29,074 nt of DNA from a virus: the IMG/VR virus record IMGVR_UViG_3300031974_001755, one strand, 5' to 3'. This document shows positions 2,995-23,301 of this stretch, in pieces. Position 1 is the stretch's first letter, and each line of letters opens with the position of its first letter. Both the position numbers and the translations under genes were made by a program. The notes beneath the pieces are model-generated. The model did no database searches. It was not told the DNA's origin and saw nothing but the letters and a program-made list of their open reading frames with translations.

Positions 2995-3093
2995 CTATGT
3001 CGTTTTTAATAAGTCTTTAAAATTTGGTTTCAATTCTTTGGTTAAGTATTTTTTTAGCTTAACTATATTTTTGTCTTTTGGTTTATATCTCAT
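2995..3093 (-). CDS. 32-aa lysine-rich peptide (MRYKPKDKNIVKLKKYLTKELKPNFKDLLKTT); function unknown
   Basis: Its ATG overlaps the stop of the upstream gene (ATGA at 3090-3093). Its TAG directly abuts the fibre ATG (TAGATG). It fills the gap exactly, and I verified all 33 codons triplet by triplet. It is below the 60-aa cutoff of the track. Confidence 0.5.
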   Translation of the reverse strand: MRYKPKDKNIVKLKKYLTKELKPNFKDLLKTT

Positions 3094-5769: not shown

Positions 5770-5780
5770 TATATAACGTA
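5770..5780 (-). promoter_or_regulatory. Conserved motif copy 1: TACGTTATATA (minus strand), 6 nt upstream of the ATG at 5763
   Basis: Plus strand reads tatataacgta. Intergenic, directly downstream of terminator T1. Confidence 0.6.
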
Positions 5781-5802
5781 TAGATTGTAAATTTTGTGTA
5801 AT

Positions 5803-5827
5803 AAAAAAGGGGGCTTTTAAACCCCCT
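5803..5827 (-). terminator. Rho-independent terminator T1, after the 173-aa tube-like gene
   Basis: Minus strand AGGGGG-tttaaaag-CCCCCT followed by TTTTTT. Confidence 0.8.
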
Positions 5828-5882
5828 AATTATTATTAAACCAAACTTAATGAAATAAACTCTTTGCTAATATACAAAAAAT

Positions 5883-6404
5883 TTATGGTGTTGGGTTAAT
5901 TGGTGATGATGAGTCATCAGTTGGTAATGATGCTACAAAGAAAGGTGGTGCTGTTTCCTGAGCAGTAAGGGTAAGCGTAAATCCACTTAAATCCCCCATA
6001 GCTGCACCTGTAACAACTGTACCCCCTGTAACTTCTGAACCATGATCTTTACCTACTAAAAATCCGTTGCCATTATAATCCTCAACAACGATTTGAGGTC
6101 GACCATGTGCTAAGAGCTTAATCTGCTCTTGAGTAGCTACATCTAAAAACGTAAATGTAACATTAAGGGTTGACTCATAAAAAGTAGTGCCATTTTCTCT
6201 TGACGAGTTAATAGCAGTTTCTAATGACGAGTTGCCCTTGATTTCATATTTGTAGAAAGATACGCTATCATCTAAAGTGATTGTACCACTACTGTCAGTC
6301 AATGCTGCTGTGGTAGATGTGTATGGTCCAAAGTAAATGTTTTTCAGCCCACCTACACCACTTTTACATGGTAACGCTCTTCCGTTTGATACTGCACAAG
6401 CCAT
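5883..6404 (-). CDS. Putative major tail (tube) protein (173 aa)
   Basis: A monocistronic unit bracketed by two strong terminators, which fits high expression. The sequence (GGLKNIYF...FYESTLNVTFTFLD...QIVVEDYNGNGFLVG...TGGTVVTGAAMGDLSGFTLTLTAQE) resembles siphophage tail-tube proteins. The function is inferred. Confidence 0.45.
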   Translation of the reverse strand: MACAVSNGRALPCKSGVGGLKNIYFGPYTSTTAALTDSSGTITLDDSVSFYKYEIKGNSSLETAINSSRENGTTFYESTLNVTFTFLDVATQEQIKLLAHGRPQIVVEDYNGNGFLVGKDHGSEVTGGTVVTGAAMGDLSGFTLTLTAQETAPPFFVASLPTDDSSSPINPTP

Positions 6405-6421
6405 ATTAATTTTATTTTAAT

Positions 6422-6457
6422 AAAAAAGGGTAGGTAGGCACTCGGCTTACCCACCCC
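6422..6457 (-). terminator. Rho-independent terminator T2, after the major capsid gene
   Basis: GC-rich imperfect hairpin (GGGTGGGTAAGCCGAGTGCCTACCTACCC on the minus strand) followed by TTTTTT. Confidence 0.7.
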
Positions 6458-6479
6458 TTTTAAGTTAGAGAATTATTGA

Positions 6480-7376
6480 TTACGAGTAGAGAACGATATC
6501 AGAACCAATACCATGCTGCACACCTGCTGTATAGCGCATAACTACACGAACATTGTCGTCGCCTAAAAAATCAGCGGTGTCTATCACGCGCACCTCATTT
6601 CTATCATTTAGCAAACCTGTCGCAAAGAAAAGGTTGCTTTTCTGAGCAGCTACTGCTGTGTTATCAGCAAGACCACCTGTGGCAAACAATGGGATTCCCT
6701 GAAAGTTCATCTCAGTCTGTCCTACGTGATACAAATCTCTATAACCCAAAGCAGCTTGTGCGCCTACATACGCTTTAGCGATGTTTTGAGAGATATAGAT
6801 AGTTAAATCTTCTTTACCATATACACCACTTGGGATAGCATCTACAATCGCCTGTAATTGAGCAATTACGTTTGAAGTAGTAACAGTAACAGCAGTAACA
6901 TCTACTACGTCTGCATCAGCAGTAAGTAGAGTTTCAAAACCATCAAAGTTGCCTTCCCCTGCGCTACCTGACCATATAGAAGTTTCAGTTGCTTTAGCAA
7001 CCTCAGCAGCTACACGAGCGATAACGAAGTCTGAGAACAATGGGGGTAGCTCGTCAAAAGCAGAGAATCCCATTTGAGCAGCTTCCCAATCAGCGTGAAG
7101 TTCTTTCTTACAGATTTGTAAGTTAACTTGCAACTCAGTTGGTGTAATCACTTTCTCAGTTAGAGTTAGTGTTGATGTAGTAGAGTCAAAGTCGCAATCA
7201 GCAGAGCGCACAAGATTTGAGAACGCACCTACTTTCATAGCAGCTTTGTACTTTACATTTGGTAAAATTGTGATAGCACCTTTGTCAAGTGTATCAGCAC
7301 TTAGAAGGGCTGCACCGAGATATTTTCCTGCAAATTCCCCTGCATAGCTACTTCCTGTAATAGTTGGATTTGGCAT
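6480..7376 (-). CDS. Major capsid protein, HK97-fold type (298 aa)
   Basis: Lies directly downstream of an acidic scaffold gene and is followed by a terminator. Size and motifs fit (FSDFVIARVAAEVAKATETSIWSGSAGEGNFDGFETLL). Confidence 0.75.
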   Translation of the reverse strand: MPNPTITGSSYAGEFAGKYLGAALLSADTLDKGAITILPNVKYKAAMKVGAFSNLVRSADCDFDSTTSTLTLTEKVITPTELQVNLQICKKELHADWEAAQMGFSAFDELPPLFSDFVIARVAAEVAKATETSIWSGSAGEGNFDGFETLLTADADVVDVTAVTVTTSNVIAQLQAIVDAIPSGVYGKEDLTIYISQNIAKAYVGAQAALGYRDLYHVGQTEMNFQGIPLFATGGLADNTAVAAQKSNLFFATGLLNDRNEVRVIDTADFLGDDNVRVVMRYTAGVQHGIGSDIVLYS

Positions 7377-7387
7377 TTTATATAAAT

Positions 7388-7975
7388 TTAATTGTTAACA
7401 ATTTTAGACATTACTTTGTCGAAAGTACTTTGCTTTCTGTTTTGCGCATACTTAAGACTTACTTTTTGTTTGGGTTCAGGGTTATGAGTGATCGCTTCTG
7501 TGGCAGGTGTTTCGGATAGTTCCTCTTTCACTTGCTCTTCAACTTCGCTCATTTCCTCTTTCTTTTCAATCATCTGCTTGATTTCCTCAACCAATGATCT
7601 CACTTCTGCTAACTCTTCTTTAGTAGCATATTCAGCTTCCACTTCCTCAAGTTCTTCAACTTCCTCAGATGCTTCTACTTCTTCCTCTTCCTGTTCAGCA
7701 GATTTGATTTCGCCAATGATACCCTCTTCGCTTACAACAAGGATTTGACCATCTTCCATTTGGTATTCGCCAACGGGTACGGCTACTTTCTCATCGTCTG
7801 TAAGGATAAAGACTTCTTTGCCTGATTCAAACGCTTCTGCTTCAAGGACAGTTCCATTTTCGAGTTTCGCTTGTGCTAACTCTACTACTTGGGATTGCTC
7901 GATATTTTCTACAATATCAGCAGTATCTTCCCCAAGATAGGTTTTGATTTTACTTAGAATTTCTGTCGCTTTCAT
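7388..7975 (-). CDS. Scaffolding protein (195 aa, highly acidic coiled coil)
   Basis: Long E-rich helical stretches (EQEEEEVEASEEVEELEEVEAEYATKEELAEVRSLVEEIKQMIEKKEE). Positioned between the protease and the capsid gene. A motif copy ends 3 nt before its ATG. Confidence 0.65.
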   Translation of the reverse strand: MKATEILSKIKTYLGEDTADIVENIEQSQVVELAQAKLENGTVLEAEAFESGKEVFILTDDEKVAVPVGEYQMEDGQILVVSEEGIIGEIKSAEQEEEEVEASEEVEELEEVEAEYATKEELAEVRSLVEEIKQMIEKKEEMSEVEEQVKEELSETPATEAITHNPEPKQKVSLKYAQNRKQSTFDKVMSKIVNN

Positions 7976-7978
7976 AAT

Positions 7979-7989
7979 AGTATAACGTA
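7979..7989 (-). promoter_or_regulatory. Conserved motif copy 2: TACGTTATACT (minus strand), 3 nt upstream of the ATG at 7975
   Basis: Plus strand reads agtataacgta. Intergenic. Confidence 0.55.
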
Positions 7990-8014
7990 TTTAAAAATTA
8001 ATTTGTATTTTGGG

Positions 8015-8158
8015 CTATACCTTCCCAATACCTTGCGCTCTTAACGAGCCGTCACAACACTTTATAGAATACGTGTTATCCTCACATAAACACGCACGTC
8101 TTGATCCCTTAGGGCTTGTTCTCGATGGTGTGATAAATCGTTTAAGTCGTTTAATCAT
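8015..8158 (-). CDS. 47-aa basic Cys-rich peptide (MIKRLKRFITPSRTSPKGSRRACLCEDNTYSIKCCDGSLRAQGIGKV)
   Basis: ATGA overlap with the upstream 44-aa ORF. All 48 codons verified. Antisense to track ORF 8010..8204, which I reject. Confidence 0.5.
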   Translation of the reverse strand: MIKRLKRFITPSRTSPKGSRRACLCEDNTYSIKCCDGSLRAQGIGKV

Positions 8159-8289
8159 TTTCCTTGACCTCTGTATTTTTTCTTATATAGCTTTGAACCT
8201 TTAATGCTACTCATTTTGGTTTTAGCGTGTACACCTTTTCTGCGTACCTTTGGCTTTAATACTTTTATGTAGTCTATTCGTTTAGCCAT
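8155..8289 (-). CDS. 44-aa extremely basic peptide (MAKRIDYIKVLKPKVRRKGVHAKTKMSSIKGSKLYKKKYRGQGK; 17 of 44 residues are K/R)
   Basis: The ATG at 8289 sits 5 nt inside the end of the protease gene, and its stop overlaps the next ATG (ATGA). All 45 codons verified. Confidence 0.5.
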   Translation of the reverse strand: MAKRIDYIKVLKPKVRRKGVHAKTKMSSIKGSKLYKKKYRGQGK

Positions 8290-9469
8290 CTATCGGTATG
8301 CAATTAGGTACTTTTTTTCCGTTTTTCATTTTCATGCCATATTGGACGTATCCATCTTGGCATGGCTTTTTAAGGTTGTGCTGTTCGCAAGGCATATACC
8401 ATACCTTACCCTCGTACTCGTGTTCGTGGTAAGATTCGCAACCAATATCTTTTGCTGCTGCTATTGCTAATTCTTTTGTAGCAAACGCAAGTCTATCATC
8501 TATAATCGCCATCTCGTCATTAATAACCTGAGAAGCTAAATCTAATTCGCCTAATTCTTTTAACTTGCTTTCAGCCCATCGCTTACCTGCTTTACCACCC
8601 CATAGAAGATAAGAGATAGTGCCACACGCCTTAGTGTCGCTTTCATCGTAGTACTCTTCTGCTCTGCTTAGATATGAGTACATACGTTTGATAGTTTCTT
8701 TTGAGATAGGTTTACCCTGTGCTAATTGTTGCGCTCGTATCTTACCTACATCAGTAGCACATTTGTTATTTACTTTCTCGTTGAGTTCAATACCACGCTT
8801 TGCGTTGTTTTTTACACCACTTGGGTAATCAGAGTAGGATTCTAATTCCTCTTTTTTACCATCTTTGTATCTACCATCCTTTTTAACGATTCTACGGATG
8901 TGTTTCAGCATATCCTGAGCTTCGTCCTCATCAAAGTCATTGATAGGTTCTTTAGGGCGTTCCATCTTGTCAGCGAAATACCCCTCAATACTGAATCCTT
9001 TAATTTTTTTTGTGCGCACATACGATTCCCATATCTCTTCGTTGTTGACTTTTACAGCCCCCATCCAAGTTCCCACAGGTACATTTAGCCCGTACTTTCT
9101 TGATTTGTCGTGTGTTTCGTCCTCTACTATCCAACTTTCTACAAGTGTTAATCCGTTAATGCTGTGTTGATGTTCTAATGTGGCTTTGTTTTGATTGCCA
9201 TTCTGTAAGTATAGCTGCGATGCCTTTTCTACTGTATCTTTTGAAAAGTATATATAATACTCATCATCGCCCTTACGTCTGTATATAGGTTTGTTTGGGA
9301 TAAGTAATGCACCAAGTAGGATACGCTTCTCGCCTGATACCTCAGCAAGTTTTATCTCTTCGTTTTTAAGTGCAATAAAATCCTCTTCAATGGCAGGGTT
9401 CTCTACGACAGATATCGCTTCTATCCCTGTTATCTCTTGGTCATCTAAGATTAGTTCTACGATTCGCAT
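8282..9469 (-). CDS. Prohead protease, XkdF-like (Peptidase_S78_2-type) N-terminal domain with a long C-terminal extension (395 aa)
   Basis: The N-terminus MRIVELILDDQEITGIEAISVVENPAIEEDFIALK matches the XkdF signature (ISLVDxPAIExxF). The extension carries CGTISYLLWGGKAGKRWAESKL and a terminal Cys motif, KPCQDGYVQYGMKMKNGKKVPNCIP. A motif copy ends 3 nt before its ATG. Confidence 0.7.
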   Translation of the reverse strand: MRIVELILDDQEITGIEAISVVENPAIEEDFIALKNEEIKLAEVSGEKRILLGALLIPNKPIYRRKGDDEYYIYFSKDTVEKASQLYLQNGNQNKATLEHQHSINGLTLVESWIVEDETHDKSRKYGLNVPVGTWMGAVKVNNEEIWESYVRTKKIKGFSIEGYFADKMERPKEPINDFDEDEAQDMLKHIRRIVKKDGRYKDGKKEELESYSDYPSGVKNNAKRGIELNEKVNNKCATDVGKIRAQQLAQGKPISKETIKRMYSYLSRAEEYYDESDTKACGTISYLLWGGKAGKRWAESKLKELGELDLASQVINDEMAIIDDRLAFATKELAIAAAKDIGCESYHEHEYEGKVWYMPCEQHNLKKPCQDGYVQYGMKMKNGKKVPNCIPIDG

Positions 9470-9472
9470 ATT

Positions 9473-9483
9473 TATATAACGTA
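9473..9483 (-). promoter_or_regulatory. Conserved motif copy 3: TACGTTATATA (minus strand), 3 nt upstream of the ATG at 9469
   Basis: Plus strand reads tatataacgta, in the 34-nt gap between 9504 and 9469. Confidence 0.6.
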
Positions 9484-9503
9484 TTTAGTTTGGTTTTTGT
9501 ATT

Positions 9504-11036
9504 TTATCCTATCGATGCACCCTCTACGATGTTTCGGTCTAATTCCTGTGCTGTGCTTACATCGTTTGATACCACGTATGCCTTTACAGGTTGCTGCGCT
9601 TGTCCACCTATTGCTTCTGCTAATTGGTTCGTATCTGATGCACCTACTATGTTAAATGCAGGGGGTGTAGGGGGCGTTGCAGTTGGCACAGATACAGTTG
9701 GCGCACCTCTTCCACCACCTTGAGCAAAACTTGGTGCAGCAGGTTCTTGTGCAGACGTTATGGCTTTGACGTTAGCAAGTCCACCTGCTACAACAGCAGC
9801 AGCCCCTATAAACCCAAAAATACCACCCTGAGCAAGAGCTTTGTTCGCACCTGCATAAGTATCTCTAATCGCTTGTACAATTGCAATAGCTTTACCAAAC
9901 TTAGAATTTTGCCCTACAATACTTGCTATGTTACCAAGTGCGTTTGTGATATCTTGTTGTTTTTGGATTGCAAGTTGTTTATCTAACTCAGCTTGCTTTA
10001 GAGCATCTTGTTTAGCTGCTTCCGCTAATTGCTTTCTTTTTTCCTCAGCTTCTTTTTGTCTTTGAGCTTCTGCGTCTGCTGCTGCTTTTTCCTCTGCCGC
10101 CTTTTCATCGGCTATCGCTTTCTCTGCTGCTCTTTGTTCGTTTAATAGAGCAATGGTTTGAGATGTAACCTCTTTTTGCTTAGATAGTCTTGCAGTTTCT
10201 AATTGTATTAAGTTGGCTTTAAGTTGTGCTTCCTCGTCTAAATCTTCTTTTGTTGACTTGCCTAAAGAGTTCTCTAATTGTTTGGCTTCTAATCTTAATT
10301 GAGATGCCTGTATCTCTTGTTGAGTTATCTCTTGGTCTATCCTACCTGCTTCTTTTAAAAACTCAATCCTTTGCTCTGTTGAAAACTGCTCTCTATCTAC
10401 TGCTTTCTCTAAAAGCTCTGCTCGTTTTCTATCTGCTTCTGCTCTATCAACAAGCAATCTTCTTTCTACCTTGTCTGCTTTAGCTCTTGCATCTGCTAAC
10501 TGACCTGCTAACTTTATTTCGTTTTTTGTTTCTTCGCCAAAGTTCTTAACACCATCTACAACCTCAGATACATTTTCTTTGAGTTCGCCCCATGCTGCGG
10601 ATGCGCCTTTTAAATCGCCTTTAGCAAGTTTGAATAATGCCTTACCTGCTGCAAATATGGATTCCCCTAAGTTAGCCAAGATATCTACTACATTACCTGT
10701 AACAACACCTATCTGAGTCATTAACTTGGCAAACCTATTTTGCCCCTCTTCTGATGCTGTAAATGCCTTTTGTAGAGATATAACACCTAACACTAATGCA
10801 CCTATACCTGTGGCAATAATCGCCACCCTAAGACTCTTAAATCCACTAACTGCTTTTTTAACACTTTGGCTAACACCCTTAAACCCACTAATAGCACCAC
10901 CTGTAAGATTATCTAAGCTACCTGTTAAATCTTCTGTGCTTTCATTTAGATTATCAGTACTCTTTTTAAGATTATCAATGCTTTTTTCAGCCCCATCGGT
11001 CTGTGCATCAATTATGATTGTTTTTTTGACTGCCAT
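9504..11036 (-). CDS. Tape-measure-like or internal virion protein (510 aa; coiled coil plus hydrophobic and Gly-rich segments)
   Basis: Hydrophobic helix LRVAIIATGIGALVLGVISL. Long A/E/K/Q coiled coil. The C-terminal segment GGIFGFIGAAAVVAGGLANV is typical of tape measure proteins (TMPs). The gene context is atypical for a TMP, as noted in the findings. Confidence 0.5.
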   Translation of the reverse strand: MAVKKTIIIDAQTDGAEKSIDNLKKSTDNLNESTEDLTGSLDNLTGGAISGFKGVSQSVKKAVSGFKSLRVAIIATGIGALVLGVISLQKAFTASEEGQNRFAKLMTQIGVVTGNVVDILANLGESIFAAGKALFKLAKGDLKGASAAWGELKENVSEVVDGVKNFGEETKNEIKLAGQLADARAKADKVERRLLVDRAEADRKRAELLEKAVDREQFSTEQRIEFLKEAGRIDQEITQQEIQASQLRLEAKQLENSLGKSTKEDLDEEAQLKANLIQLETARLSKQKEVTSQTIALLNEQRAAEKAIADEKAAEEKAAADAEAQRQKEAEEKRKQLAEAAKQDALKQAELDKQLAIQKQQDITNALGNIASIVGQNSKFGKAIAIVQAIRDTYAGANKALAQGGIFGFIGAAAVVAGGLANVKAITSAQEPAAPSFAQGGGRGAPTVSVPTATPPTPPAFNIVGASDTNQLAEAIGGQAQQPVKAYVVSNDVSTAQELDRNIVEGASIG

Positions 11037-11167
11037 TTTATTTCGTTTTTAACTTGGGTAAATGCTTGTTTTAAGTTCTTAGGTAGATAGTTCTGTCCTT
11101 TAGCTATTCGGATGTTTTCCGAGCCATCTTTTACATAGGGTAGTAACTCTAAGATATTCTGTATCAT
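11012..11167 (-). CDS. 51-aa ORF (MIQNILELLPYVKDGSENIRIAKGQNYLPKNLKQAFTQVKNEIKWQSKKQS)
   Basis: ATGA overlap with the stop of the 689-aa gene. Ends 25 nt inside the next gene. All 52 codons verified. Below the track cutoff. Confidence 0.4.
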   Translation of the reverse strand: MIQNILELLPYVKDGSENIRIAKGQNYLPKNLKQAFTQVKNEIKWQSKKQS

Positions 11168-15273: not shown

Positions 15274-15354
15274 TAAATTTACTTTTTATTTGTCTTGCTT
15301 CTAACTCTGCTTTGTCTTTCATAAAACTTAGGGCATATAAACATTGATGAGCGT

Positions 15355-16002
15355 TTAGTTTAGTGATATCTTCAAATCGTCCAATATCCCCCTGAGCGAG
15401 TGCGTAAAGTGATTGATACCACCCCCATTTTCGTCCGAAATTAGATGCAGCGCTAAGTTCATCTCCTCGTTCCCCAAATAGTTCAGCATAGCTTTCGATA
15501 AGTCCATCCCTAAATTGTAAAAAAAAACAATAGAACCTAAGACTGCACTCATGGGCATATCTTTCATCTTTTCTGCGTTATCTACGCTATAATCCTCTAC
15601 GTTGTACTTATCGCCATATTGATTCACAATAGGTCTGTATAGAACATTCATAGCCCTGTGCATATTTTCCCAATCGCCTATAAACGTATCTAAGTCTATG
15701 TATTCGCCAAAGCTCATATCATCTAACTTAGGTATAAACCCATATTGCGTACCTTTCATCTTGAACATAGTTTGCAACTTGGGTGTATGGTTTAGCATCT
15801 CAGTTAATATCTGCACTATGCTGTTAATGTCAGTAGCCCTCATAAGCAGGACGTGGTCGCCACGTATCCCACAAAATATCTCTATCATCTTAACAGCTAA
15901 AAACTTCTCGTCCTCGTTGTTATCTTGTATCTTTAGATATCTCTGATATTGGTCTAAGGTTATCTCATTAAGCGATTCAGGGATTTCTATATCTACTTTC
16001 AT
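15355..16002 (-). CDS. Hypothetical morphogenesis-module protein (215 aa; possible chaperone)
   Basis: First gene after terL. A motif copy ends 3 nt before its ATG. Acidic and helical. Confidence 0.35.
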   Translation of the reverse strand: MKVDIEIPESLNEITLDQYQRYLKIQDNNEDEKFLAVKMIEIFCGIRGDHVLLMRATDINSIVQILTEMLNHTPKLQTMFKMKGTQYGFIPKLDDMSFGEYIDLDTFIGDWENMHRAMNVLYRPIVNQYGDKYNVEDYSVDNAEKMKDMPMSAVLGSIVFFYNLGMDLSKAMLNYLGNEEMNLALHLISDENGGGINHFTHSLRGILDDLKISLN

Positions 16003-16005
16003 ACT

Positions 16006-16016
16006 TATATAACGTA
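16006..16016 (-). promoter_or_regulatory. Conserved motif copy 4: TACGTTATATA (minus strand), 3 nt upstream of the ATG at 16002
   Basis: Plus strand reads tatataacgta, in the 27-nt terL / next-gene gap. Preceded by T9 on the minus strand. Confidence 0.6.
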
Positions 16017-16029
16017 AAAAAAAATGATT

Positions 16030-17241: not shown

Positions 17242-17524
17242 ACTTAATTAAGTCCTTAAAGTTTATATTTAGCCCCTCTGATGAATTGATATCCATACTC
17301 TCTTTTGGCTTACCATAACGATAGCTGAGATATAGTTGTATTGCTCTCATATCGCCTTTTGCTACGAGCTTACCTAATTGTGTTAATGCTTCGTTGCTGT
17401 CTATGATCGCATCTAAGCGTTCTACTAATTTAGCTTCGTCTGCTTTAGGTTTTCTACCCGCCCCTTGTCTTGCACCACCATTTGAAGCTCTACCATCCAT
17501 AATTGAAAAAGATTGTTTAATCAA
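17231..17524 (-). CDS. Terminase small subunit-like DNA-binding protein (97 aa)
   Basis: GGARQGAGRKPKADE...AIQLYLSYRYGKPKES is a pattern common in small terminase and packaging proteins, and the gene lies directly upstream of terL. The codon at 17524 is TTG. An alternative ATG at 17500 would give MDGRASNGG... Confidence 0.5.
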   Translation of the reverse strand: MIKQSFSIMDGRASNGGARQGAGRKPKADEAKLVERLDAIIDSNEALTQLGKLVAKGDMRAIQLYLSYRYGKPKESMDINSSEGLNINFKDLIKFVD

Positions 17525-17525
17525 T

Positions 17526-17536
17526 TATATAACGTA
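17526..17536 (-). promoter_or_regulatory. Conserved motif copy 5: TACGTTATATA (minus strand), 1 nt upstream of the TTG at 17524 (25 nt upstream of the ATG at 17500)
   Basis: Plus strand reads tatataacgta, immediately after the stop (17538-17540) of the preceding small ORF. Confidence 0.6.
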
Positions 17537-17537
17537 A

Positions 17538-17669
17538 TTATTCAGGATTTTGTGTACCCTTTAATTCCCGCACCTCTTTAGCTAATTGATTAACCATAAG
17601 GTAGAGTTTTGTTGTAGCTCTTTCTATCTGCTCAATCTTTTGTGCTTGAGTCCACTTTTTTGTTTTCAT
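17538..17669 (-). CDS. 43-aa helical ORF (MKTKKWTQAQKIEQIERATTKLYLMVNQLAKEVRELKGTQNPE)
   Basis: ATGA overlap with the upstream ORF. All codons verified. Confidence 0.5.
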   Translation of the reverse strand: MKTKKWTQAQKIEQIERATTKLYLMVNQLAKEVRELKGTQNPE

Positions 17670-17800
17670 CGTTTCTTATTTTGGTCAACGTATAACGCTC
17701 TTTTGTTTGTTCTGTGATATTGATAAGTATTCTGCCATTCAGGCATAGGGATAAACTTAATATCCTTATCTATCTCTGCTCTTGTCTTTTTTCGTTTCAT
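17666..17800 (-). CDS. 44-aa basic ORF (MKRKKTRAEIDKDIKFIPMPEWQNTYQYHRTNKRALYVDQNKKR)
   Basis: Its stop overlaps the next ATG (ATGA). All codons verified. Confidence 0.45.
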   Translation of the reverse strand: MKRKKTRAEIDKDIKFIPMPEWQNTYQYHRTNKRALYVDQNKKR

Positions 17801-17903
17801 CTAATTGTTTTTCGTATAGTGCGCAGTCGTTACATTGAAACACGCATCGTGAGTAGCTAAATTCATCATCAAGGCATATAAAGTTATTTTTTTCCATCTT
17901 CAT
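17766..17903 (-). CDS. 45-aa Cys-rich (zinc-ribbon-like) ORF (MKMEKNNFICLDDEFSYSRCVFQCNDCALYEKQLDETKKDKSRDR)
   Basis: Open frame verified. Contains a C-x9-C-x3-C-x2-C pattern. Overlaps the neighbouring ORFs on both sides. Confidence 0.4.
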   Translation of the reverse strand: MKMEKNNFICLDDEFSYSRCVFQCNDCALYEKQLDETKKDKSRDR

Positions 17904-17988
17904 ATCCTTTTAGGTATCCTATAAACCAACAGAAAGCACATAGTACCATTGTTGTTAAGAACCCACTAAAGTCCATATATAGTATCAT
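17884..17988 (-). CDS. 34-aa single-pass membrane peptide (MILYMDFSGFLTTMVLCAFCWFIGYLKGYEDGKK)
   Basis: ATGA overlap with the upstream ORF. Hydrophobic core. All codons verified. Confidence 0.4.
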   Translation of the reverse strand: MILYMDFSGFLTTMVLCAFCWFIGYLKGYEDGKK

Positions 17989-18119
17989 AATCGTTTGTAT
18001 CTAAGGTCAGGTCTATCTTCATTACTAAAGTGTTCTATCATTCTATCACAATACTTTAATATCTTAGGATCATCAGTTGTTGTTTTCCAATGATTGTAAT
18101 AACGTATCATGTGTATCAT
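17985..18119 (-). CDS. 44-aa ORF (MIHMIRYYNHWKTTTDDPKILKYCDRMIEHFSNEDRPDLRYKRL)
   Basis: ATGA overlap with the methyltransferase stop (18119-18121), and ATGA overlap with the next ORF. All codons verified. Confidence 0.45.
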   Translation of the reverse strand: MIHMIRYYNHWKTTTDDPKILKYCDRMIEHFSNEDRPDLRYKRL

Positions 18120-18739
18120 CAGAATAGTCTTTGTTGTTGTTTATGTTGTTCTATTCGCTTCATGGCAGCTTCGTAGTAGTCTTTATCGAGTTCGCACCCT
18201 GTTAGCTCATATCCTAAATTATAACAAGCTATTGCTATTGAGCCACTACCTAAATGAGTATCGAGTATCTTATCGTTTTCTTTTGCGTAATTCATAAGCA
18301 ACCATTCGTAAAGTTGAATGGGTTTCTCTGTTGGGTGTATTCGTGGTGTACCATTGTTAGCGTTTGCACCAACCCAAGATACTTTGTATTTTCTCAAAGC
18401 TCTTTTAAAACTTGTGTATGCAAGTTCGCCATCGCTAAAATCATTTGAACCTGTGCCTTTATCCCAAAACACCCAACCCATGCTTGGGGGTAAATATGTA
18501 GTCATATAATTAGCACCCCAAACTATTTGATTTTTACTAACCCTATACAACTCATTAAAATAATTAGCATCAGGTATATTGCTATCCCAATCTGTTGTAC
18601 CCCTATTTATTTTTTTCTTACCATTCCCAAGTGTCATTTTTGTTACATCAATCCCATAAGGGGGATCAACGATAGCAAGGTCGAAGTAGTTATCCTCATA
18701 CCTTGCCATTAAATCCATACAGTCCTCGTTTGTTATCAT
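18119..18739 (-). CDS. DNA N6-adenine / N4-cytosine methyltransferase, beta class (206 aa)
   Basis: Motif IV IVDPPYGI comes before motif I LDTHLGSGS, and HPTEKP is present. This is the N6_N4_Mtase family architecture. The target base and target sequence cannot be told from the sequence. Confidence 0.85.
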   Translation of the reverse strand: MITNEDCMDLMARYEDNYFDLAIVDPPYGIDVTKMTLGNGKKKINRGTTDWDSNIPDANYFNELYRVSKNQIVWGANYMTTYLPPSMGWVFWDKGTGSNDFSDGELAYTSFKRALRKYKVSWVGANANNGTPRIHPTEKPIQLYEWLLMNYAKENDKILDTHLGSGSIAIACYNLGYELTGCELDKDYYEAAMKRIEQHKQQQRLF

Positions 18740-19209
18740 TCTACTGTAATTGCGTTTGCATCGTATATGGTCGCTTGTTGGTTTCTCGGTTGTATATTAA
18801 ACCCTACTAACATAGCTTCTAAGCGTATTTTAACATCGTTTCTGCGTTCCTCAGGTACTTGGTCTATGAGTGAGTACAAAGGGTTCTCTATACGCTTCTC
18901 AATCATCTCTATTGGCTCGTCCTTTATATTGTAAAATATGTTATACACTTTGTCAAAGTCTGTCTTAAATTCTTTATCGTGTTTGTAGTAATGGGTAAAC
19001 CGATCTAAGTGATAGAGAACAGTTGCATGGTTTTGCTTAAACGATTCTGAGATATGCCTTTTGATCACTTCCTGCTCACGCATTATTCTATAAGCCATCA
19101 TCCTACCCTTTACTACTTTGTGCTTACGATTGTTCTCAGTTATATCTATACCTAAGTGTTCTTTGATGATCTTCTCTAATCGTGTCTTGATATCTTTTGT
19201 GTATGTCAT
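18736..19209 (-). CDS. DnaA domain IV-like helix-turn-helix (HTH) DNA-binding protein (157 aa)
   Basis: RKHKVVKGRMMAYRIMREQEVIKRHISESFKQNHATVLYHLDRF matches the DnaA C-terminal pattern (R..a.aRqiAMYL.r......IG..fg.rdHsTVlha). Confidence 0.5.
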   Translation of the reverse strand: MTYTKDIKTRLEKIIKEHLGIDITENNRKHKVVKGRMMAYRIMREQEVIKRHISESFKQNHATVLYHLDRFTHYYKHDKEFKTDFDKVYNIFYNIKDEPIEMIEKRIENPLYSLIDQVPEERRNDVKIRLEAMLVGFNIQPRNQQATIYDANAITVE

Positions 19210-20045
19210 CTAATCGTGCTTAATTTATTTTTAACAAATTGATTGTAGTATGTAACTACGTTATCCTTTGTGGTGTTTAAGTATGGCGGCATAGTTCTAT
19301 TGAGATACAGAGCAAACTTAACCAACTCTTTAAACATCTTATCTACATTGTTTGTTTTACGAATTACCTTATTAATGATAACTGCTAAAGCGCACTTAGT
19401 CAACTTATGTGTCATTTTATCCCATTCAATGTGTTTGTTAATCTCATCTGTGTAGGACGATTGCAATAGATAATACAACCTCAATCGTGTTGATGAGTTG
19501 CTTTGTATTTTTGCGTTCCCTGTTCTAAAAGAATCATTTAATGATTGAGTAAATAGCATCCTGATAGATGCGTGTGAGAATACACCATTGACACCCATAG
19601 CTTCATCAAGTTGCTTAGGTGTTTCAGGGATGTTGTATATCTTATTCCAAACAAACGTATAGAAGTTATCATTATCAAAAGGGTTCACACTTCGCTTAGT
19701 GGCGTGAAATCTTATATAATCCTGTATCTGTAATGGCTTTCGTATATTGTTAAGTGATAGAAAAACATCCTCAGGTTTTACCTTTGTATCGTTTGGCACT
19801 ACAACAGCGTGTATCTCTTGCTCAGGCATCTTCTCAATTACAGAGCTTAACCTTTGGTATCCATCCTCTACCGAGTATAACCCTTTGCGTATTTCGTATA
19901 ATGTTACTGCTGTTAAAAACCCATTCGCTTTGATTGAGTTGTTTAAGTTGCTTATGTGATGTTTCTCTTTCCATCTTTGATGTAGGGGGATCGTTATTTG
20001 ATTTTTTAAATCCCCTGCTTTGAATGTTCTTATTTCCGTTCTCAT
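19206..20045 (-). CDS. ParB/Srx-superfamily (ParB N-terminal nuclease-like) domain protein (279 aa)
   Basis: ISNLNNSIKANGFLTAVTLYEIRKGLYSVEDGYQRLSSV fits the ParB-N / DUF262-type DGxxR(L) core. Confidence 0.5.
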   Translation of the reverse strand: MRTEIRTFKAGDLKNQITIPLHQRWKEKHHISNLNNSIKANGFLTAVTLYEIRKGLYSVEDGYQRLSSVIEKMPEQEIHAVVVPNDTKVKPEDVFLSLNNIRKPLQIQDYIRFHATKRSVNPFDNDNFYTFVWNKIYNIPETPKQLDEAMGVNGVFSHASIRMLFTQSLNDSFRTGNAKIQSNSSTRLRLYYLLQSSYTDEINKHIEWDKMTHKLTKCALAVIINKVIRKTNNVDKMFKELVKFALYLNRTMPPYLNTTKDNVVTYYNQFVKNKLSTIR

Positions 20046-20046
20046 G

Positions 20047-20823
20047 TTATAATGTTCCTGTTAAACAATAATTATCTAAATCTGCGCCATGTATAAAAAA
20101 GGTTTCAAAAACTTCTATGGCTTCATGTGTTTTTCTTTTACCCTCATTGTAAAACTCTTCTGATACATCGTATATCGCTATGTCAAGAGTTCCCTTGTCC
20201 ATTACACCAAACTTAAAGTCTGTGTAAGGTACGTTAAATAATTCACAATAAATATACACTTGTATATCGTATCCGTACTTTCGAGCTGAATGGCGAAAAC
20301 CATTTTTAACATCAGTTGTGGTCTTTAGGTCAACGATTTTGTTTTTACCTAATACATCTGCTTTTGCTCTAAAGGGATAACCACCTATCATACCACAGGC
20401 AGGTACTTCAAACTCGCTGTTGTCTAATAGTCTTAATGCCTGTTCGTTTCTTAGGAACGCATCAGCTAACCTTTCAGCATCTCGTTTCTCTTTCATCGTA
20501 AATACTTTACCATGCTCTGCTAATGCTTCCTTATACTTCTTTGTGTTCTTGCTTTGCACATCTACAAAGATTTGGTCGTTAAATACTGAGGATTCGAGGA
20601 TGGCAGTATGAAACAACCACCCATCACGCAGGGCTTGACTATCAGGCGAACCATAGTCTGTAACAAACTTATACTTCTTTGGGCTTTGGTGTAGCATCTT
20701 GATTGATGATGAGCTTAATGCTGCCTTAGCCATATACCCATAGTAAAACTCATCTTCTCTTAATAAATCTATGAGGGTGTCTTTCTTAAAGCGTTCCCCA
20801 TTTAGTAGTGTTATCTCACTCAT
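20047..20823 (-). CDS. PD-(D/E)XK exonuclease, RecE/DUF3799-like (258 aa)
   Basis: GWLFHTAILE, then RAKADVLGKNKIVDLKTTTD (D...DLK core) and YDIQVYIY (the Q/Y motif of RecB-family nucleases). Confidence 0.55.
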   Translation of the reverse strand: MSEITLLNGERFKKDTLIDLLREDEFYYGYMAKAALSSSSIKMLHQSPKKYKFVTDYGSPDSQALRDGWLFHTAILESSVFNDQIFVDVQSKNTKKYKEALAEHGKVFTMKEKRDAERLADAFLRNEQALRLLDNSEFEVPACGMIGGYPFRAKADVLGKNKIVDLKTTTDVKNGFRHSARKYGYDIQVYIYCELFNVPYTDFKFGVMDKGTLDIAIYDVSEEFYNEGKRKTHEAIEVFETFFIHGADLDNYCLTGTL

Positions 20824-20942
20824 CTTTGGTCTGCTTCAAAACAAGTTCCACTACAATATAATTCGCTTTCTCGTATGGGTGTACCACACATTGAGCATTG
20901 GTTTGACTCTTCGTTATACTTTAGCCAATCGCTATATTCCAT
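20820..20942 (-). CDS. 40-aa zinc-ribbon ORF (MEYSDWLKYNEESNQCSMCGTPIRESELYCSGTCFEADQR)
   Basis: CxxC-x10-CxxxC pattern. Its stop overlaps the exonuclease ATG (ATGA). All codons verified. Confidence 0.5.
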   Translation of the reverse strand: MEYSDWLKYNEESNQCSMCGTPIRESELYCSGTCFEADQR

Positions 20943-21213
20943 ATTTATTCTCTTTTAAATTCTCTAACTCTTTCTCTACTCGTCTTGCACGTTCCACAGC
21001 TCTGATAACTGATTGACGTTCCTCTCGTAAGATACGCTTAAAGCTATATCGTTCTAACTCTAATTGATTGATATAGAACACGAGTCGTAATGCTGCTTCT
21101 GATATCTTTTGCAGTTCCTCATTGTCTGATTTCTTTTGCCACTTGCTGATGGTTTCTAAAATCTCAGCAGAGTCAATCATATATTGCAACTGACCAAAAT
21201 CCATATCAAACAT
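20932..21213 (-). CDS. Hypothetical coiled-coil protein (93 aa)
   Basis: ORF with an ATG start and a helical, charged sequence. No recognisable family. Confidence 0.55.
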   Translation of the reverse strand: MFDMDFGQLQYMIDSAEILETISKWQKKSDNEELQKISEAALRLVFYINQLELERYSFKRILREERQSVIRAVERARRVEKELENLKENKYGI

Positions 21214-21257
21214 ATAATCATTCCTACAAATCCTATCTGTGCGTAGTCTATCTTCAT
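21177..21257 (-). CDS. Possible 26-aa hydrophobic peptide (MKIDYAQIGFVGMIICLIWILVSCNI)
   Basis: ATGA overlap with the upstream stop (21254-21257). However, it overlaps the 93-aa ORF by 37 nt. Weak call. Confidence 0.2.
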   Translation of the reverse strand: MKIDYAQIGFVGMIICLIWILVSCNI

Positions 21258-21394
21258 AATCCTAAAAACTTTTTGGCTTTAGACCACCACACATTCTGAG
21301 TGTAGTATAAGTTAAACTCTGTCTGAGTCATTACTTCTATCCTTTCGCCTTTGTTGACGATGTATAATCCTGTGGGTGTTATTTTAAAAACCAT
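21254..21394 (-). CDS. Hypothetical protein, 46 aa if it starts at the internal ATG (MVFKITPTGLYIVNKGERIEV...). The track gives 21254..21448.
   Basis: The longer version would overlap the better-supported 44-aa membrane ORF by 70 nt. The ATG at 21394 reduces the overlap to 16 nt. Confidence 0.4.
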   Translation of the reverse strand: MVFKITPTGLYIVNKGERIEVMTQTEFNLYYTQNVWWSKAKKFLGL

Positions 21395-21513
21395 GCTCTT
21401 AGAATATAAGTTAACAATAAGATATCTAAAATCGCAATCCAAAAGCATAGAGTAATCAATGCGATGTACATTGTACCCTCTATGTCATTAAAGTAGTTGA
21501 ATAATTTTCTCAT
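21379..21513 (-). CDS. 44-aa membrane peptide (MRKLFNYFNDIEGTMYIALITLCFWIAILDILLLTYILRAWFLK)
   Basis: First ORF downstream of the predicted promoter at 21534-21563. Has a clear transmembrane (TM) helix. All codons verified. Confidence 0.45.
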   Translation of the reverse strand: MRKLFNYFNDIEGTMYIALITLCFWIAILDILLLTYILRAWFLK

Positions 21514-21533
21514 ATAATCGTTTTAATGTTATA

Positions 21534-21563
21534 CAAATATAATAAAAAAATGTTAATAAACAA
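21534..21563 (-). promoter_or_regulatory. Bacteroidota-type promoter candidate: TTG - 19 nt - TATATTTG (matches the -33/-7 consensus TTTG / TAnnTTTG)
   Basis: Minus strand cTTGtttattaacatttttttatTATATTTG. The box ends 20 nt before the ATG at 21513. It lies in one of the few intergenic gaps. Confidence 0.5.
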
Positions 21564-21567
21564 GTTT

Positions 21568-21708
21568 TTACTTTTTTCTATACTGAACAGCACACACAGC
21601 AAGTCTTTGGTCTGTGTTAGGATACTCTTTTATCATTGTAGGATTACCCATACAACGAGCCATAAAGTCCTTTCTGTCCTCTCGTGGTTTTGGTGTTGGT
21701 AATGGCAT
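21568..21708 (-). CDS. 46-aa conserved small phage protein (MPLPTPKPREDRKDFMARCMGNPTMIKEYPNTDQRLAVCAVQYRKK)
   Basis: I recognise the DFMxRCM...(E/D)(Y/F)P(D/N)xxQRxAVC pattern as a recurrent small phage protein or domain. It starts 3 nt after the C5-MTase stop. All codons verified. Confidence 0.6.
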   Translation of the reverse strand: MPLPTPKPREDRKDFMARCMGNPTMIKEYPNTDQRLAVCAVQYRKK

Positions 21709-21710
21709 AA

Positions 21711-22373
21711 TTAACTATTTAAAATTTCTATACATAATTCGTGAGGTATCTTACTTCTCTCATAATTGTTTCTTAGCCCCTGAGTTCCTTTACCTAAAGC
21801 ACCTGCTGCTTTTTTAGCTGCGTATCCTCTTGGTTGTTTATCGTGATGGCATTTTTCGTTACCATTAAAACATTCAGGTCTTGGATTCCATCCTTTAGAG
21901 TTAAGTAAGCTATAAAGATTGTTAGTCCATATATCAGTTGGTTTTGCTCGTGTATCGCCATACTTACAATACCATACAGTCGTGCGTGGCAAACCCATCA
22001 TAAACTTTTGTTTTCTTAATAGTCCTCTTGGGTTTTCTATATAAAAAATCAAACGTGGATTCAAATTACAATAGTGTTCTATTATAGATAAAGTTTCTTT
22101 TACCATATTATCACTCTTTATTGCAAAATCAGATAATGGTTTATTGTGTGGTCTATGATGAGATATAGCTGCTATGCTATAAGTAGTACAGGGGGGCGAA
22201 GCCCATATAATATCAGGCGTGAATGGTACTTTGTTAATATCAAACTCTAAAATATCTACTGCATAGTCTATACCCTCAAACTCGTTTATATCACTACTGA
22301 ACACATTGTAGCCCAAAGATTCTGCTGCTTTGCCTACTGATCTACTACCTGCAAACAATTCTAAGACATTCAT
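21711..22373 (-). CDS. Compact DNA (cytosine-5) methyltransferase (220 aa)
   Basis: Motif I ELFAGSRSVG, motif IV ASPPCTTYS (catalytic Cys), motif VI-like IENPRG and a C-terminal RSKIPHELCIEIL. Short for the family, so the target-recognition region is minimal. Confidence 0.7.
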   Translation of the reverse strand: MNVLELFAGSRSVGKAAESLGYNVFSSDINEFEGIDYAVDILEFDINKVPFTPDIIWASPPCTTYSIAAISHHRPHNKPLSDFAIKSDNMVKETLSIIEHYCNLNPRLIFYIENPRGLLRKQKFMMGLPRTTVWYCKYGDTRAKPTDIWTNNLYSLLNSKGWNPRPECFNGNEKCHHDKQPRGYAAKKAAGALGKGTQGLRNNYERSKIPHELCIEILNS

Positions 22374-23008
22374 ATATTTAAATGCATTATTGTATTTATC
22401 TTGTTTATCGTTTCCTGCTTATCTACAATTCCGTTATCATCGTAGTAAACATAAACGTAGGGGGCATACTTACGTGCGTAGTTATCGTTCTTTTCTTTGT
22501 GGTTTGCCTTCGCTCTGTTTTGGTAAGCTGTATTCATCATCTTGTATGAGATAGGTTTGATTTGTATCCCTAAGACAATGTATTCGTCTTTTATTATCTC
22601 AGCATCTATGCAATAGGTGTGGTCTTTCTCAAAGTCTGTTTTAACTATATCTATGTTTGTAAACTCTGCTTTGAGTTCGTCTATTATGCTAAGCTCTTGT
22701 TGGTATCCGTTCCAAGTCTGTCCTATCACACGATAGAAAACATATTGCTTTACCTGCTCTAATGGTATCCACTGATTCTTTAGGTGTATTCTTTGGCTTA
22801 CATAAGATAGTTGTTTGTACCCTACTGAGCATTTATACGAGTGTTCCCAATCCTTATGCGTTTTGCTTTCGTGGTATTTATGAAAGTCGCTTATGAGCTT
22901 CATGCACTTACCTACATACTTAGTCTGAAAAAAATGATTGACACTCTTGTCTTTGTTTAGCTTTCGGTACAGCTCATCGCTTAATGGTTGCTTATACTTA
23001 TAAGGCAT
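22370..23008 (-). CDS. Hypothetical protein with a possible PD-(D/E)XK-like core (212 aa)
   Basis: HTYCIDAEIIKDEYIVLGIQIKP gives a D-x14-Q-x-K arrangement on predicted beta strands. Translationally coupled (ATGA) to the C5 methyltransferase. The fold assignment is tentative. Confidence 0.3.
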   Translation of the reverse strand: MPYKYKQPLSDELYRKLNKDKSVNHFFQTKYVGKCMKLISDFHKYHESKTHKDWEHSYKCSVGYKQLSYVSQRIHLKNQWIPLEQVKQYVFYRVIGQTWNGYQQELSIIDELKAEFTNIDIVKTDFEKDHTYCIDAEIIKDEYIVLGIQIKPISYKMMNTAYQNRAKANHKEKNDNYARKYAPYVYVYYDDNGIVDKQETINKINTIMHLNI

Positions 23009-23207
23009 ATATTTTGTTTATTTGGTATATCCATTCCTTAATACGCTTAGGCGAACAGGTACAAGGTTCGTGGTACTTATGAGCATATAGGTCAGCGTGT
23101 AATTCGCATATCAGCTTGTAATGCTTCTCGGTCATATTACCACTTAAAAGCTCAGCATAGGGCTTCCACCTTTGTCTTTGCTCATCGGTCATTTGTCCTT
23201 TTGGCAT
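22998..23207 (-). CDS. Hypothetical Cys/His-containing protein (69 aa)
   Basis: ORF with an ATG start. Contains HADLYAHKYHEPCTCSPKR. No family recognised. Confidence 0.55.
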   Translation of the reverse strand: MPKGQMTDEQRQRWKPYAELLSGNMTEKHYKLICELHADLYAHKYHEPCTCSPKRIKEWIYQINKIYAL

Positions 23208-23208
23208 C

Positions 23209-23268
23209 CTAAAATTTTATGTTATTCCATTTGTTTCTGCGCTCATCGCATCCACAATCTCTACCCAT
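23209..23268 (-). CDS. Possible 19-aa leader ORF (MGRDCGCDERRNKWNNIKF)
   Basis: Starts 22 nt after motif copy 6. Its TAG stop lies 1 nt before the ATG at 23207. It could be a leader peptide or a chance ORF. Confidence 0.2.
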   Translation of the reverse strand: MGRDCGCDERRNKWNNIKF

Positions 23269-23290
23269 AAGTTTGGATATCTTCTTTACT

Positions 23291-23301
23291 ATATAACGTA
23301 T
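23291..23301 (-). promoter_or_regulatory. Conserved motif copy 6: TACGTTATATA (minus strand), in the 129-nt gap downstream of the sigma-factor gene
   Basis: Plus strand reads tatataacgta. It is 22 nt upstream of the 19-aa ORF and 83 nt upstream of the ATG at 23207. Confidence 0.55.

Follow-up and report, generated by a model that had tools for sequence, protein, structure and literature searches.

A start-codon-linked bipartite element as a probable promoter read by a phage-encoded sigma factor in an uncultured marine flavobacterial phage

The viral record IMGVR_UViG_3300031974_001755, a stretch of 29,074 nucleotides analyzed here at its full length (the window), carries a short motif, TACGTTATA, at the heads of six gene blocks. 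The explanation that we find best overall, and consider probable, is that these sites are middle and late promoters that depend on a sigma factor encoded by the phage, and that the late mRNAs made from them have no leader or nearly none. Comparison with related genomes makes it highly likely that the six copies are promoter elements, and it is a good deal easier to believe than to doubt that the phage sigma factor is what reads them. The promoter reading is favored because of the orientation of the copies, their position at block heads, a partner element resembling a -35 box, a terminator directly in front of the first site, the sigma gene that lies upstream, and box sequences specific to each genome. 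In this model the motif would be the downstream, -10-like part of a two-part promoter (RCAAAW, a spacer of some 10 nt, TACGTTATAta) recognized by host core RNA polymerase carrying the phage sigma factor.

Every gene of the window is on the minus strand, making minus the coding strand, and the features of the window described below lie on it. The exact 9-mer TACGTTATA occurs six times and always on this strand, where chance would give 0.48 copies, and none of 100 dinucleotide-preserving shuffles reached six; chance is excluded as their origin. Five copies extend to the 11-mer TACGTTATATA, and copy 2 ends in ...ATACT. An earlier note on this DNA, written from the letters alone, had described such an 11-mer present six times, on the coding strand only, with a variant second copy and nothing on the other strand, a description that exact counting on both strands and in shuffled genomes upholds. 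A position weight matrix (PWM) built from the six sites scores them at 25.7 to 33 bits, with the next best matches below 10 bits on the coding strand and at 10.2 on the other, a separation that is partly circular, as the matrix derives from the very sites scored. The motif class is discrete, without a tail of degenerate copies. Over the whole circular genome, the shorter string CGTTATA occurs on the coding strand seven times downstream of the sigma gene and not once upstream of it. The seventh occurrence (17691-17697, gagCGTTATAcgt) falls within a 44-aa open reading frame (ORF) and is probably a chance match: it has neither the TA before the box nor the ta after it, and no upstream element stands at the right distance.

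Upstream of every core there is a second element, (c)ACAAAAT or a near variant of it (ACAAATT, ACAAAAA, CTAAAAT), that ends 10 nt before the core, or 9 nt before it in copy 6. The absence of any conserved -35-like element, as reported in the earlier note, was thus mistaken. Site P1 (5770..5798) consists of cACAAAAT at 5798-5791, a 10-nt spacer, and TACGTTATAta at 5780-5770, and heads the block that runs from the 139-aa gene (p139) to the lysis genes; the ATG of p139, at 5763, lies 8 nt past the 9-mer and 6 nt past the 11-mer. P2 (7979..8006), with ACAAATT at 8006-8000 and TACGTTATAct at 7989-7979, heads a scaffold-like gene and the gene for the major capsid protein (MCP). P3 (9473..9500), with ACAAAAA at 9500-9494 and TACGTTATAta at 9483-9473, heads an S78/XkdF-like protease gene, and P4 (16006..16033), with CTAAAAT at 16033-16027 and TACGTTATAta at 16016-16006, heads a 215-aa gene (p215) and the tail block. 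The spacer is 10 nt in all three. Their ATGs, at 7975, 9469, and 16002, stand exactly 3 nt past the 11-mer, as had been noticed from the sequence; the C of CGT is at -12 in P2 and P3, and the -35-like element of P4 overlaps the terL stop codon.

The two remaining sites depart from this layout. P5 (17526..17553; ACAAAAT at 17553-17547, a 10-nt spacer, and TACGTTATAta at 17536-17526) heads terS and terL, and its -35-like element lies inside the 3' end of a 43-aa ORF. The claim that five copies end 1 to 6 nt before a start codon holds for copies 1 to 4 (6, 3, 3, and 3 nt) and fails for copy 5. The start codon placed 1 nt past that copy is a spurious TTG from the ORF caller, which is out of frame in one relative (L135) and runs into a stop in another (L153), and it is the ATG at 17500, 25 nt past the 11-mer, that is conserved along with the terS N terminus that follows it, leaving a leader of about 20 to 25 nt. 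P6 (23290..23316; ACAAAAT at 23316-23310, a 9-nt spacer, and TACGTTATAta at 23300-23290) is situated inside a conserved 45-aa ORF (23346-23209) that encodes a protein with a CxC pattern. The copies are consequently not all intergenic, as had been believed, and the sixth 11-mer occupies 23290-23300 rather than 23291-23301; the coordinates first given for the other five, and the gene-block labels attached to all of them, proved correct.

Uncultured relatives recognizable by sigma and portal homology number more than 590 in IMG/VR. Scanning IMG/VR with the bipartite DNA pattern ACAAAAT-N9/10-TACGTTATA recovered at least 119 viral stretches, 98 of which encode homologues of proteins of this phage, some only 30 to 45% identical; nearly all carry the motif on the strand of their genes. 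Loci fetched by protein alone avoid the ascertainment bias of such a search, and we collected 80 by sigma homology (98 to 42% identity, 791 kb) and 79 by portal homology. In the sigma-selected loci, PWM matches of at least 18 bits numbered 47 on the sigma strand and none on the opposite strand. Among the portal-selected loci, all 60 that could be anchored at the p139-like junction have RCAAAA, about 10 to 12 nt, a TATA-rich box, and ATG in the layout of P1, most with a terminator hairpin directly upstream, and 98% of distinct sequences have the A at -29 of the -35-like element. In this set, the junctions of the scaffold and protease genes read AAAT(A/G)CAAAA, spacer, box, ATG, and are conserved in 35 and 24 distinct relatives, respectively. 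A regular expression for the full architecture was too strict for the terS and p215 junctions of the sigma-selected loci, and reading outward from terL was used instead; the P4-type junction after the terL stop codon recurs there. Control junctions in the portal-selected relatives, in front of MCP, p173, and the tape measure protein (TMP), never carry the bipartite box. Had the motif not been conserved at equivalent positions in related genomes, the earlier note would have counted this against it; the bipartite box is conserved at the same block heads.

The box is held in a narrow register to the start codon. With the A of ATG as +1, CGTTATA occupies -12 to -6 in P2 through P4 and -15 to -9 in P1, and the entire intergenic space at P2 through P4 amounts to 27 to 39 nt, filled by the two elements. 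In the unbiased junction sets, the CG[TA]TATA box and the ATG are separated by 5 nt in 37 cases, 6 nt in 14, 7 nt in 2, 8 nt in 2, and 9 nt in 1, so that 51 of 56 fall at 5 to 6 nt. T(-9), A(-8), T(-7), and A(-6) are each found in 69 to 96% of junction sequences and T(-1) in 75 to 100%, with the upstream CAAAA at about -31 to -27. The conserved T(-1)/A(+1) pair matches the usual pyrimidine/purine preference of transcription start sites. Measured start sites lie 6 to 8 bp past the sigma-specific element in phages phiEco32 and 7-11 (PMC8948821), and applying this distance here puts the start on the ATG. Under any sigma-70-family reading of the box, transcription should begin between about -3 and +3 of the ATG, giving a leader of 0 or at most 3 nt. 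On this geometry we lean, by a little, toward leaderless or near-leaderless messages for four of the six units, P1 through P4. Public contigs were also searched for ends at the predicted start sites: the scaffold gene was found on eight contigs, none of them beginning closer than 75 nt upstream, and the exact MCP protein was absent from the records.

The same architecture is present in a cultured outgroup. In phage P12024S (NC_018271), which infects Nonlabens, seven block heads, including that of the gene before the portal gene, carry TAAAACAAA, about 11 to 12 nt, (t/c)CGTTAAT, and ATG. The sites are at 167-181, 3019-3033, 5400-5414, 21260-21282, 23949-23963, 25189-25203, and 26790-26804, and six of the seven show CGTTA-N7-ATG. 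That string occurs eight times in the P12024S genome against 1.2 expected, and six of the eight are annotated block-head starts. Shortly before its terminase genes, P12024S also encodes gp33, annotated 'Sigma-70 region 2,' which is 26% identical to the sigma factor of the window (E value of 1e-10). A tblastn search of deposited phages with the window sigma gave no match; gp33 was located through its annotation and confirmed by pairwise comparison.

The putative reader is encoded at 23337..23834, in the last sizeable gene of the early block. It is a divergent two-domain protein (sigma2 and a putative sigma4) that resembles extracytoplasmic function (ECF) sigma factors, as does its size, 165 aa without region 1.1 or region 3, within the range of about 160 to 200 aa typical of this group. 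Pfam Sigma70_r2 matches it at 21.5 bits, under the 24-bit cutoff, phrog_1740 ('RNA polymerase sigma factor') matches it at 1.8e-5, and its homologues are named 'sigma24 family' by the Joint Genome Institute. A profile of 16 family members matches only the sigma2 domains of sigma factors in the PDB (SigR, Mtb SigE, SigW, and SigH; mostly ECF), with E values of 0.0045 to 0.6, and DIVQEMY of the phage protein aligns with the AEDLVQET motif of region 2.2. The ORF at 23834-23337 thus has a sigma2 domain (regions 2.1 to 2.4), its Pfam score below the cutoff notwithstanding. An AlphaFold2 model (predicted local distance difference test score, 76) has two helical bundles, with a linker modeled at low confidence (residues 76 to 81) between them. 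Its top Foldseek matches are ECF sigma factors in holoenzyme or anti-sigma complexes, at probabilities of 0.9 to 1.0 and E values of about 0.02, and a phage gp79-dependent RNA polymerase complex appears at rank 9; template modeling (TM) scores reach only 0.35 to 0.38 because the relative orientation of the two domains differs. The putative sigma4 region has no match to Pfam region 4; the model places helices at 112-128, 133-140, and 144-161 in it, and the ECF alignments span 160 to 177 columns at these low TM scores.

Gene order and box evolution both point to a reader encoded by the phage, and the concerted evolution of the boxes is the strongest such link. All six copies lie downstream of the sigma gene and none is in the early region. 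Each genome uses one box variant at its nonhomologous junctions: CGTTATA, CGATATA, CTATATA, TGATATA, or TTATATA. Compared between different junctions, the 9-nt box is identical at 6.53 of 9 positions within genomes versus 5.07 of 9 between them, and none of 5,000 label permutations reached the observed value. In the sigma-selected loci, 11 junctions of the GTTTATATA type belong to one sigma clade and the CG(T/A)TATA types to the other; raw 7-mer counts per locus were too noisy to serve as motif-type labels on the sigma tree, and junction sequences were used. A box that is specific to a lineage and uniform within a genome indicates a phage-encoded reader that co-evolves with it. CGT at -10, a canonical trait of ECF promoters, is shared by the window with its clade and recurs as CGTTA in P12024S; sister clades have CTA, TGA, or TTA. 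The traits of phage middle/late promoters as a class are likewise present: a sigma factor of the phage's own, a phage-specific consensus at late block heads and not at early ones, and positions that are conserved as the consensus diverges along with the sigma factor.

A promoter read by a host sigma factor, either one of the ECF type or sigmaA together with a phage activator, would leave the phage sigma-like protein with some other role. We regard this as unlikely. Promoters with a CGT box at -10 are a mark of ECF regulation in the Flavobacteriaceae, as in F. psychrophilum motif SM6 (PMC9723704), the first eight bases of the box, TACGTTAT, match the sigmaA -7 box TAnnTTTG at six of eight positions, and the assignment of the phage sigma factor is weak by sequence. 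However, the TTTG critical to the -7 box is missing, and the phage box varies between related phages (CGT, CGA, CTA, TGA, TTA, GTTT) while remaining uniform within each genome, a pattern that fits a phage reader. A sigma homologue also co-occurs with the motif set wherever a contig covers both, P12024S included, and the location of all copies beyond the sigma gene likewise argues against a host reader. The simple form of this alternative, an ordinary host sigmaA promoter, was rejected: TAnnTTTG is present elsewhere in the window and at none of the six copies. A generic sigma-70 promoter scan of the DNA stayed at background level (60 found versus 57.6 expected).

A signal acting in RNA is more doubtful still, and we consider it very improbable. 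The box would then be a 5' untranslated region (UTR) element for translation initiation in place of a Shine-Dalgarno (SD) sequence, or a processing site, with transcription starting farther upstream, for instance with ACAAAAT as the -10 element. The fixed distance to the ATG is what such a signal would have, and SD sequences are lacking both in the host phylum and in this genome, where an SD-like sequence is present at only 6 of 49 genes and A-rich stretches precede the start codons. Yet the box stands beside the start of only 4 of about 49 genes, the MCP, p173, and TMP junctions are without it in all relatives, and it is 27 nt (P5) and 84 nt (P6) from the next start at the other two sites. 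RNA structure is not significant (z scores of -1.4 to +1.2), Rfam covariance models gave no match at gathering thresholds, and the box changes with phage lineage whereas the host ribosome would be constant. A transcription start site would instead account for the partner element, which is spaced as in promoters, and for the conservation of T(-1)/A(+1). The earlier note had hedged between three readings, and the comparative evidence supports two of them, a promoter with leaderless or near-leaderless mRNA and an ECF-like -10 element, and disfavors the RNA-level signal.

Least probable of these three alternatives, and to be doubted strongly, is an operator at which a phage DNA-binding regulator acts over promoters that have escaped recognition. 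Concerted evolution requires a phage-encoded reader of some kind, and besides the CxC protein a 157-aa protein with a weak DnaA-C-like helix-turn-helix (HTH; 19209-18736) could be proposed for the part; this protein is the only other regulator lead, and no other RNA polymerase or strong transcription factor candidate was found among the annotated ORFs of the genome. An operator is at odds with a motif that is asymmetric, strictly oriented, bipartite in the manner of -35 and -10 elements, and locked to the ATG, and the 27 to 39 nt between genes at P2 through P4 leave no room for a separate promoter. Promoters of a T7-like or other phage RNA polymerase, with TATA just before +1, were rejected, as no RNA-polymerase-like gene is present among the annotated ORFs of this complete genome.

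Several observations weigh against sigma-dependent promoters with leaderless messages. Taken by itself, the window shows no significant excess of the CGTTA-N7-ATG spacing (3 versus 1.04 expected), which gains its weight from the relatives, some of which (L124 and L144, for example) have a longer gap to the ATG at the same junction. The sigma assignment depends on weak scores in Pfam, PDB profile, and Foldseek comparisons, though the matches are almost exclusively to sigma factors. That the boxes evolve in concert speaks for some reader encoded by the phage and does not prove it to be this sigma factor, and the tracking of sigma clades by motif type could reflect whole-genome phylogeny. The -35-like element is not the canonical AAC of ECF promoters: AAC is absent, and there is an AC 16 to 17 nt before the CGT. 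P6 lies in coding sequence, and its core is lost at synonymous sites in the close relatives L126, L127, and L131 (ATT CGC TAT ATA). Few mRNAs of Bacteroidota are leaderless, the share being 5.5% in F. psychrophilum and, counting UTRs of less than 10 nt, about 3.7% in B. thetaiotaomicron (PMC9723704; PMC7366714; see also PMC6847099), and efficient leaderless translation by the host therefore stays an unproven prediction.

Taking sigma-dependent promoters as the preferred explanation, comparative genomics suggests the following program. The host holoenzyme would transcribe the early genes, the last of which are those for the helicase, the sigma factor, and the small CxC protein. The sigma factor would then redirect RNA polymerase to P6, for DNA modification and nuclease genes, and to P5 through P1, for the terminase, tail, protease, scaffold-MCP, and portal-fiber-lysis blocks. 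At P1 through P4, judging from geometry and the distance known from phiEco32 and 7-11, transcripts would have their 5' ends on the AUG or no more than about 3 nt from it, and terS would be the exception, with a conserved, structured leader of about 20 to 25 nt.

In the case of P6, the promoter would be embedded in coding sequence and would serve the middle block; it is the weakest and least certain of the six, and we judge the arguments for and against it to be evenly balanced. The site overlaps the stretch that encodes T K Y T G I R Y I, its two halves corresponding to T-K-Y and I-R-Y-I. The exact core is kept in relatives with 67 to 98% sigma identity (L026, L116, L053, and others), and in L026 and L116 flanking synonymous sites have changed around it; more distant clades lack it. 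Some clades without the P6 core have a motif-like TTCGTTATAtaat in the 3' end of the sigma gene, for example L158 and L161. The string (T/C)TCGTTATAtaat is seen there in L135 (about 4959), L142 (about 1906), L158 (about 2047), and L161 (about 4175), in the codons Y-S-L-Y-N of a conserved YYSLYNTYK. This position may be an alternative site of the first sigma-dependent promoter in genomes whose CxC gene has no P6.

The gene that hosts P6 (23209..23346) encodes a protein with LGDLVFYFTKYTGIRYIVKK and, farther along, DCGCDERRNKWN. It conforms to the pattern …LGDLVYY.TKYTGI+…DCGCD.RR..WN, which is conserved in relatives down to 42% sigma identity and is represented in neither Pfam nor PHROG. The gene starts with an ATG that overlaps the sigma stop codon, coupling the two genes translationally, and this overlap persists in relatives over the same range of identity; the small protein could be a sigma cofactor or an anti-sigma factor.

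Terminators and a hairpin accompany some of the block heads. An intrinsic terminator at 5808..5827, AGGGGGTTTAAAAGCCCCCT followed by a T-run, ends a few nucleotides before the -35-like element of P1, and the order terminator, promoter, ATG is found at this junction in most of the relatives listed. A strong terminator directly upstream means that a promoter for the essential genes beyond it must lie in the last 45 nt or so before the ATG. Another strong intrinsic terminator directly follows the MCP gene (6432..6456) and is conserved in nearly all relatives, with orthologous sites in L195 to L271. As p173 follows that terminator without a promoter box, partial read-through that sets the ratio of MCP to p173 is implied. 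The terS leader can form a hairpin (17495..17527; AATTGA…TCAATT), the 3' arm of which reaches up to or into the ATG of terS. Its predicted folding energy is -9.5 kcal/mol (z score of -1.4), and relatives show compensatory changes in the arms (CTTGA/TCAAG, TTTGA/TCAAA, ATTGA/TCAAT). The hairpin may provide translational control of terS at the one late block head that does not have the leaderless layout. An AATCAA in the middle of this leader could pair alternatively with the 5' arm.

The window represents a complete circular genome of 28,983 bp, circularly permuted, as indicated by the exact 91-nt direct repeat at its ends (1-91 and 28984-29074), and has a GC content of 37%. A fiber ORF running from 2994 to 1 continues in frame from 28983 to 28459 and encodes about 1172 aa with a C-terminal Peptidase_S74 intramolecular chaperone domain. 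In order of transcription, the early block contains a NinG-like gene, a DUF3127 SSB-like gene, a terminator, and the genes for the DnaB-like helicase, sigma factor, and CxC protein. P6 is followed by a 69-aa gene, an MjaI-like endonuclease, a C5 methylase, a PD-(D/E)XK nuclease, an N6/N4 methylase, and small ORFs; P5 by terS and terL; P4 by the 215-aa gene and tail genes through a TMP-like gene; P3 by the S78/XkdF-like protease; P2 by the scaffold-like gene, MCP, a terminator, p173, and a second terminator; and P1 by p139, portal, a 166-aa gene, fiber, small genes, holin-like genes, and an M15 endolysin, which leads back to an AT-only, (TA)n-rich intergenic region of 105 nt (26429-26535) that separates the late/lysis block from the first early gene. 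This region could be an origin of replication or contain early promoters; the host-type TAnnTTTG box was not found within it, and a search for early promoters of the helicase-sigma operon identified none.

The first sizeable genes after P6 are those for the MjaI-like restriction endonuclease (PF09568) and the C5 cytosine methylase (21711-23008), a pair that resembles a restriction-modification system and is carried here by a lytic phage. A 119-nt gap inside the middle-gene block contains a textbook sigmaA-type promoter of Bacteroidota, TTG-N19-TATATTTG (21563-21534), which suggests that the host holoenzyme transcribes the genes from 21448 downward. A search of deposited phages found no close DNA relative, apart from a 122-bp methyltransferase match, and the only cultured relatives are the Nonlabens (Persicivirga) phages P12024S and P12024L, at 37% portal identity. 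Eleven of 12 genome-collection contigs that encode relatives were binned in Bacteroidota metagenome-assembled genomes (Flavobacteriaceae, Polaribacter, Wocania, Saprospiraceae). The window is a phage of marine Flavobacteriia.

The kind of mechanism is known, a phage-encoded sigma factor with phage-specific middle/late promoters; what is new here is its consensus, its sigma family, and the phylum of the host, and literature searches found no prior description of this consensus and sigma system. The nearest counterparts are phiEco32 gp36 and gp47 of Salmonella phage 7-11, phage sigma factors with middle/late promoters whose consensus diverges with the sigma factor as their positions are kept (PMC8948821). 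There too, a small lytic phage makes a divergent sigma factor, which binds the core RNA polymerase of the host (a step only predicted for the window), late blocks begin with a consensus peculiar to the phage, and in 7-11 the promoter is likewise bipartite (GTAAtg-N16-aCTA; PMC8948821). Their hosts are Enterobacteria rather than Bacteroidota, the consensus is unrelated, and it is the element in the window that is locked to the start codon. In contrast to gp36, the sigma factor here has a putative sigma4-like domain and its proposed promoters a -35-like partner; the window promoters are predictions from sequence.

ECF (group 4) promoters share with these sites a two-domain sigma factor (its second domain putative in the phage), a CGT(T) core at -10, and an AC-containing upstream element about 17 nt before the CGT. 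B. subtilis SigW recognizes TGAAAC-N16-CGTA, and SigR and SigH have a GTT in the -10 element. The differences are ACAAAA here versus GGAAC or AAC, the replacement of CGT by CTA, TGA, or TTA in sister phage clades, and a sigma factor that scores below Pfam thresholds and for which no anti-sigma partner was identified. More distant than phiEco32 and 7-11 are T4 and SPO1, in which a phage sigma factor also times late genes and, in A/T-rich form, a TATA-like -10 box recurs. Late promoters read by T4 gp55 have TATAAATA at -10 and no -35 element, need a sliding-clamp co-activator, and bear no fixed relation to the start codon, and SPO1 gp28 and gp33-34 are phage sigma factors that replace the host sigma factor. 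Compared with Bacteroidota sigmaA promoters (-33 TTTG/-7 TAnnTTTG), the six sites have a similarly compact geometry near the start site and the TA at the beginning of the box; TTTG is absent from all of them, and the canonical example at 21563-21534 looks unlike them. Leaderless mRNAs are familiar from lambda cI transcribed from PRM and from many actinobacterial transcripts, in which a -10 element about 7 nt upstream of the AUG makes the AUG the mRNA 5' end. Here, the heads of virion operons throughout a whole phage clade would be laid out for leaderless messages as a rule, in a phylum with about 4 to 6% leaderless transcripts.

What is distinctive is the -10 box locked to the start codon clade-wide, implying leaderless late mRNAs in Bacteroidota. 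The broadest form of this proposal, that this abundant clade of marine Flavobacteriia siphophages has truly leaderless virion operons, phage ECF-like sigma factors, a box locked at -12 to -6, and lineage-specific specificities (CGT, CGA, CTA, TGA, TTA, and GTTT), is one that we advance tentatively, as falling slightly short of an even chance. The finding gives abundant, unstudied marine flavobacterial phages a transcription program that can be tested, from early genes through the sigma factor to six sigma-dependent units, and P12024S on Nonlabens offers a cultured system of the same architecture for such experiments. Leaderless structural operons predicted in a phylum without SD initiation bear on how Bacteroidota ribosomes choose start codons; if the prediction is true, these SD-independent ribosomes translate leaderless messages well enough to build virions. 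The lineage-specific -10 triplets and the diverged sigma factors that accompany them amount to a natural experiment on the specificity of ECF-like sigma factors. If the model is correct, they would also represent a natural library of orthogonal sigma-promoter pairs, and possibly a source of compact expression parts of about 30 bp for the Bacteroidota, where genetic tools are scarce.

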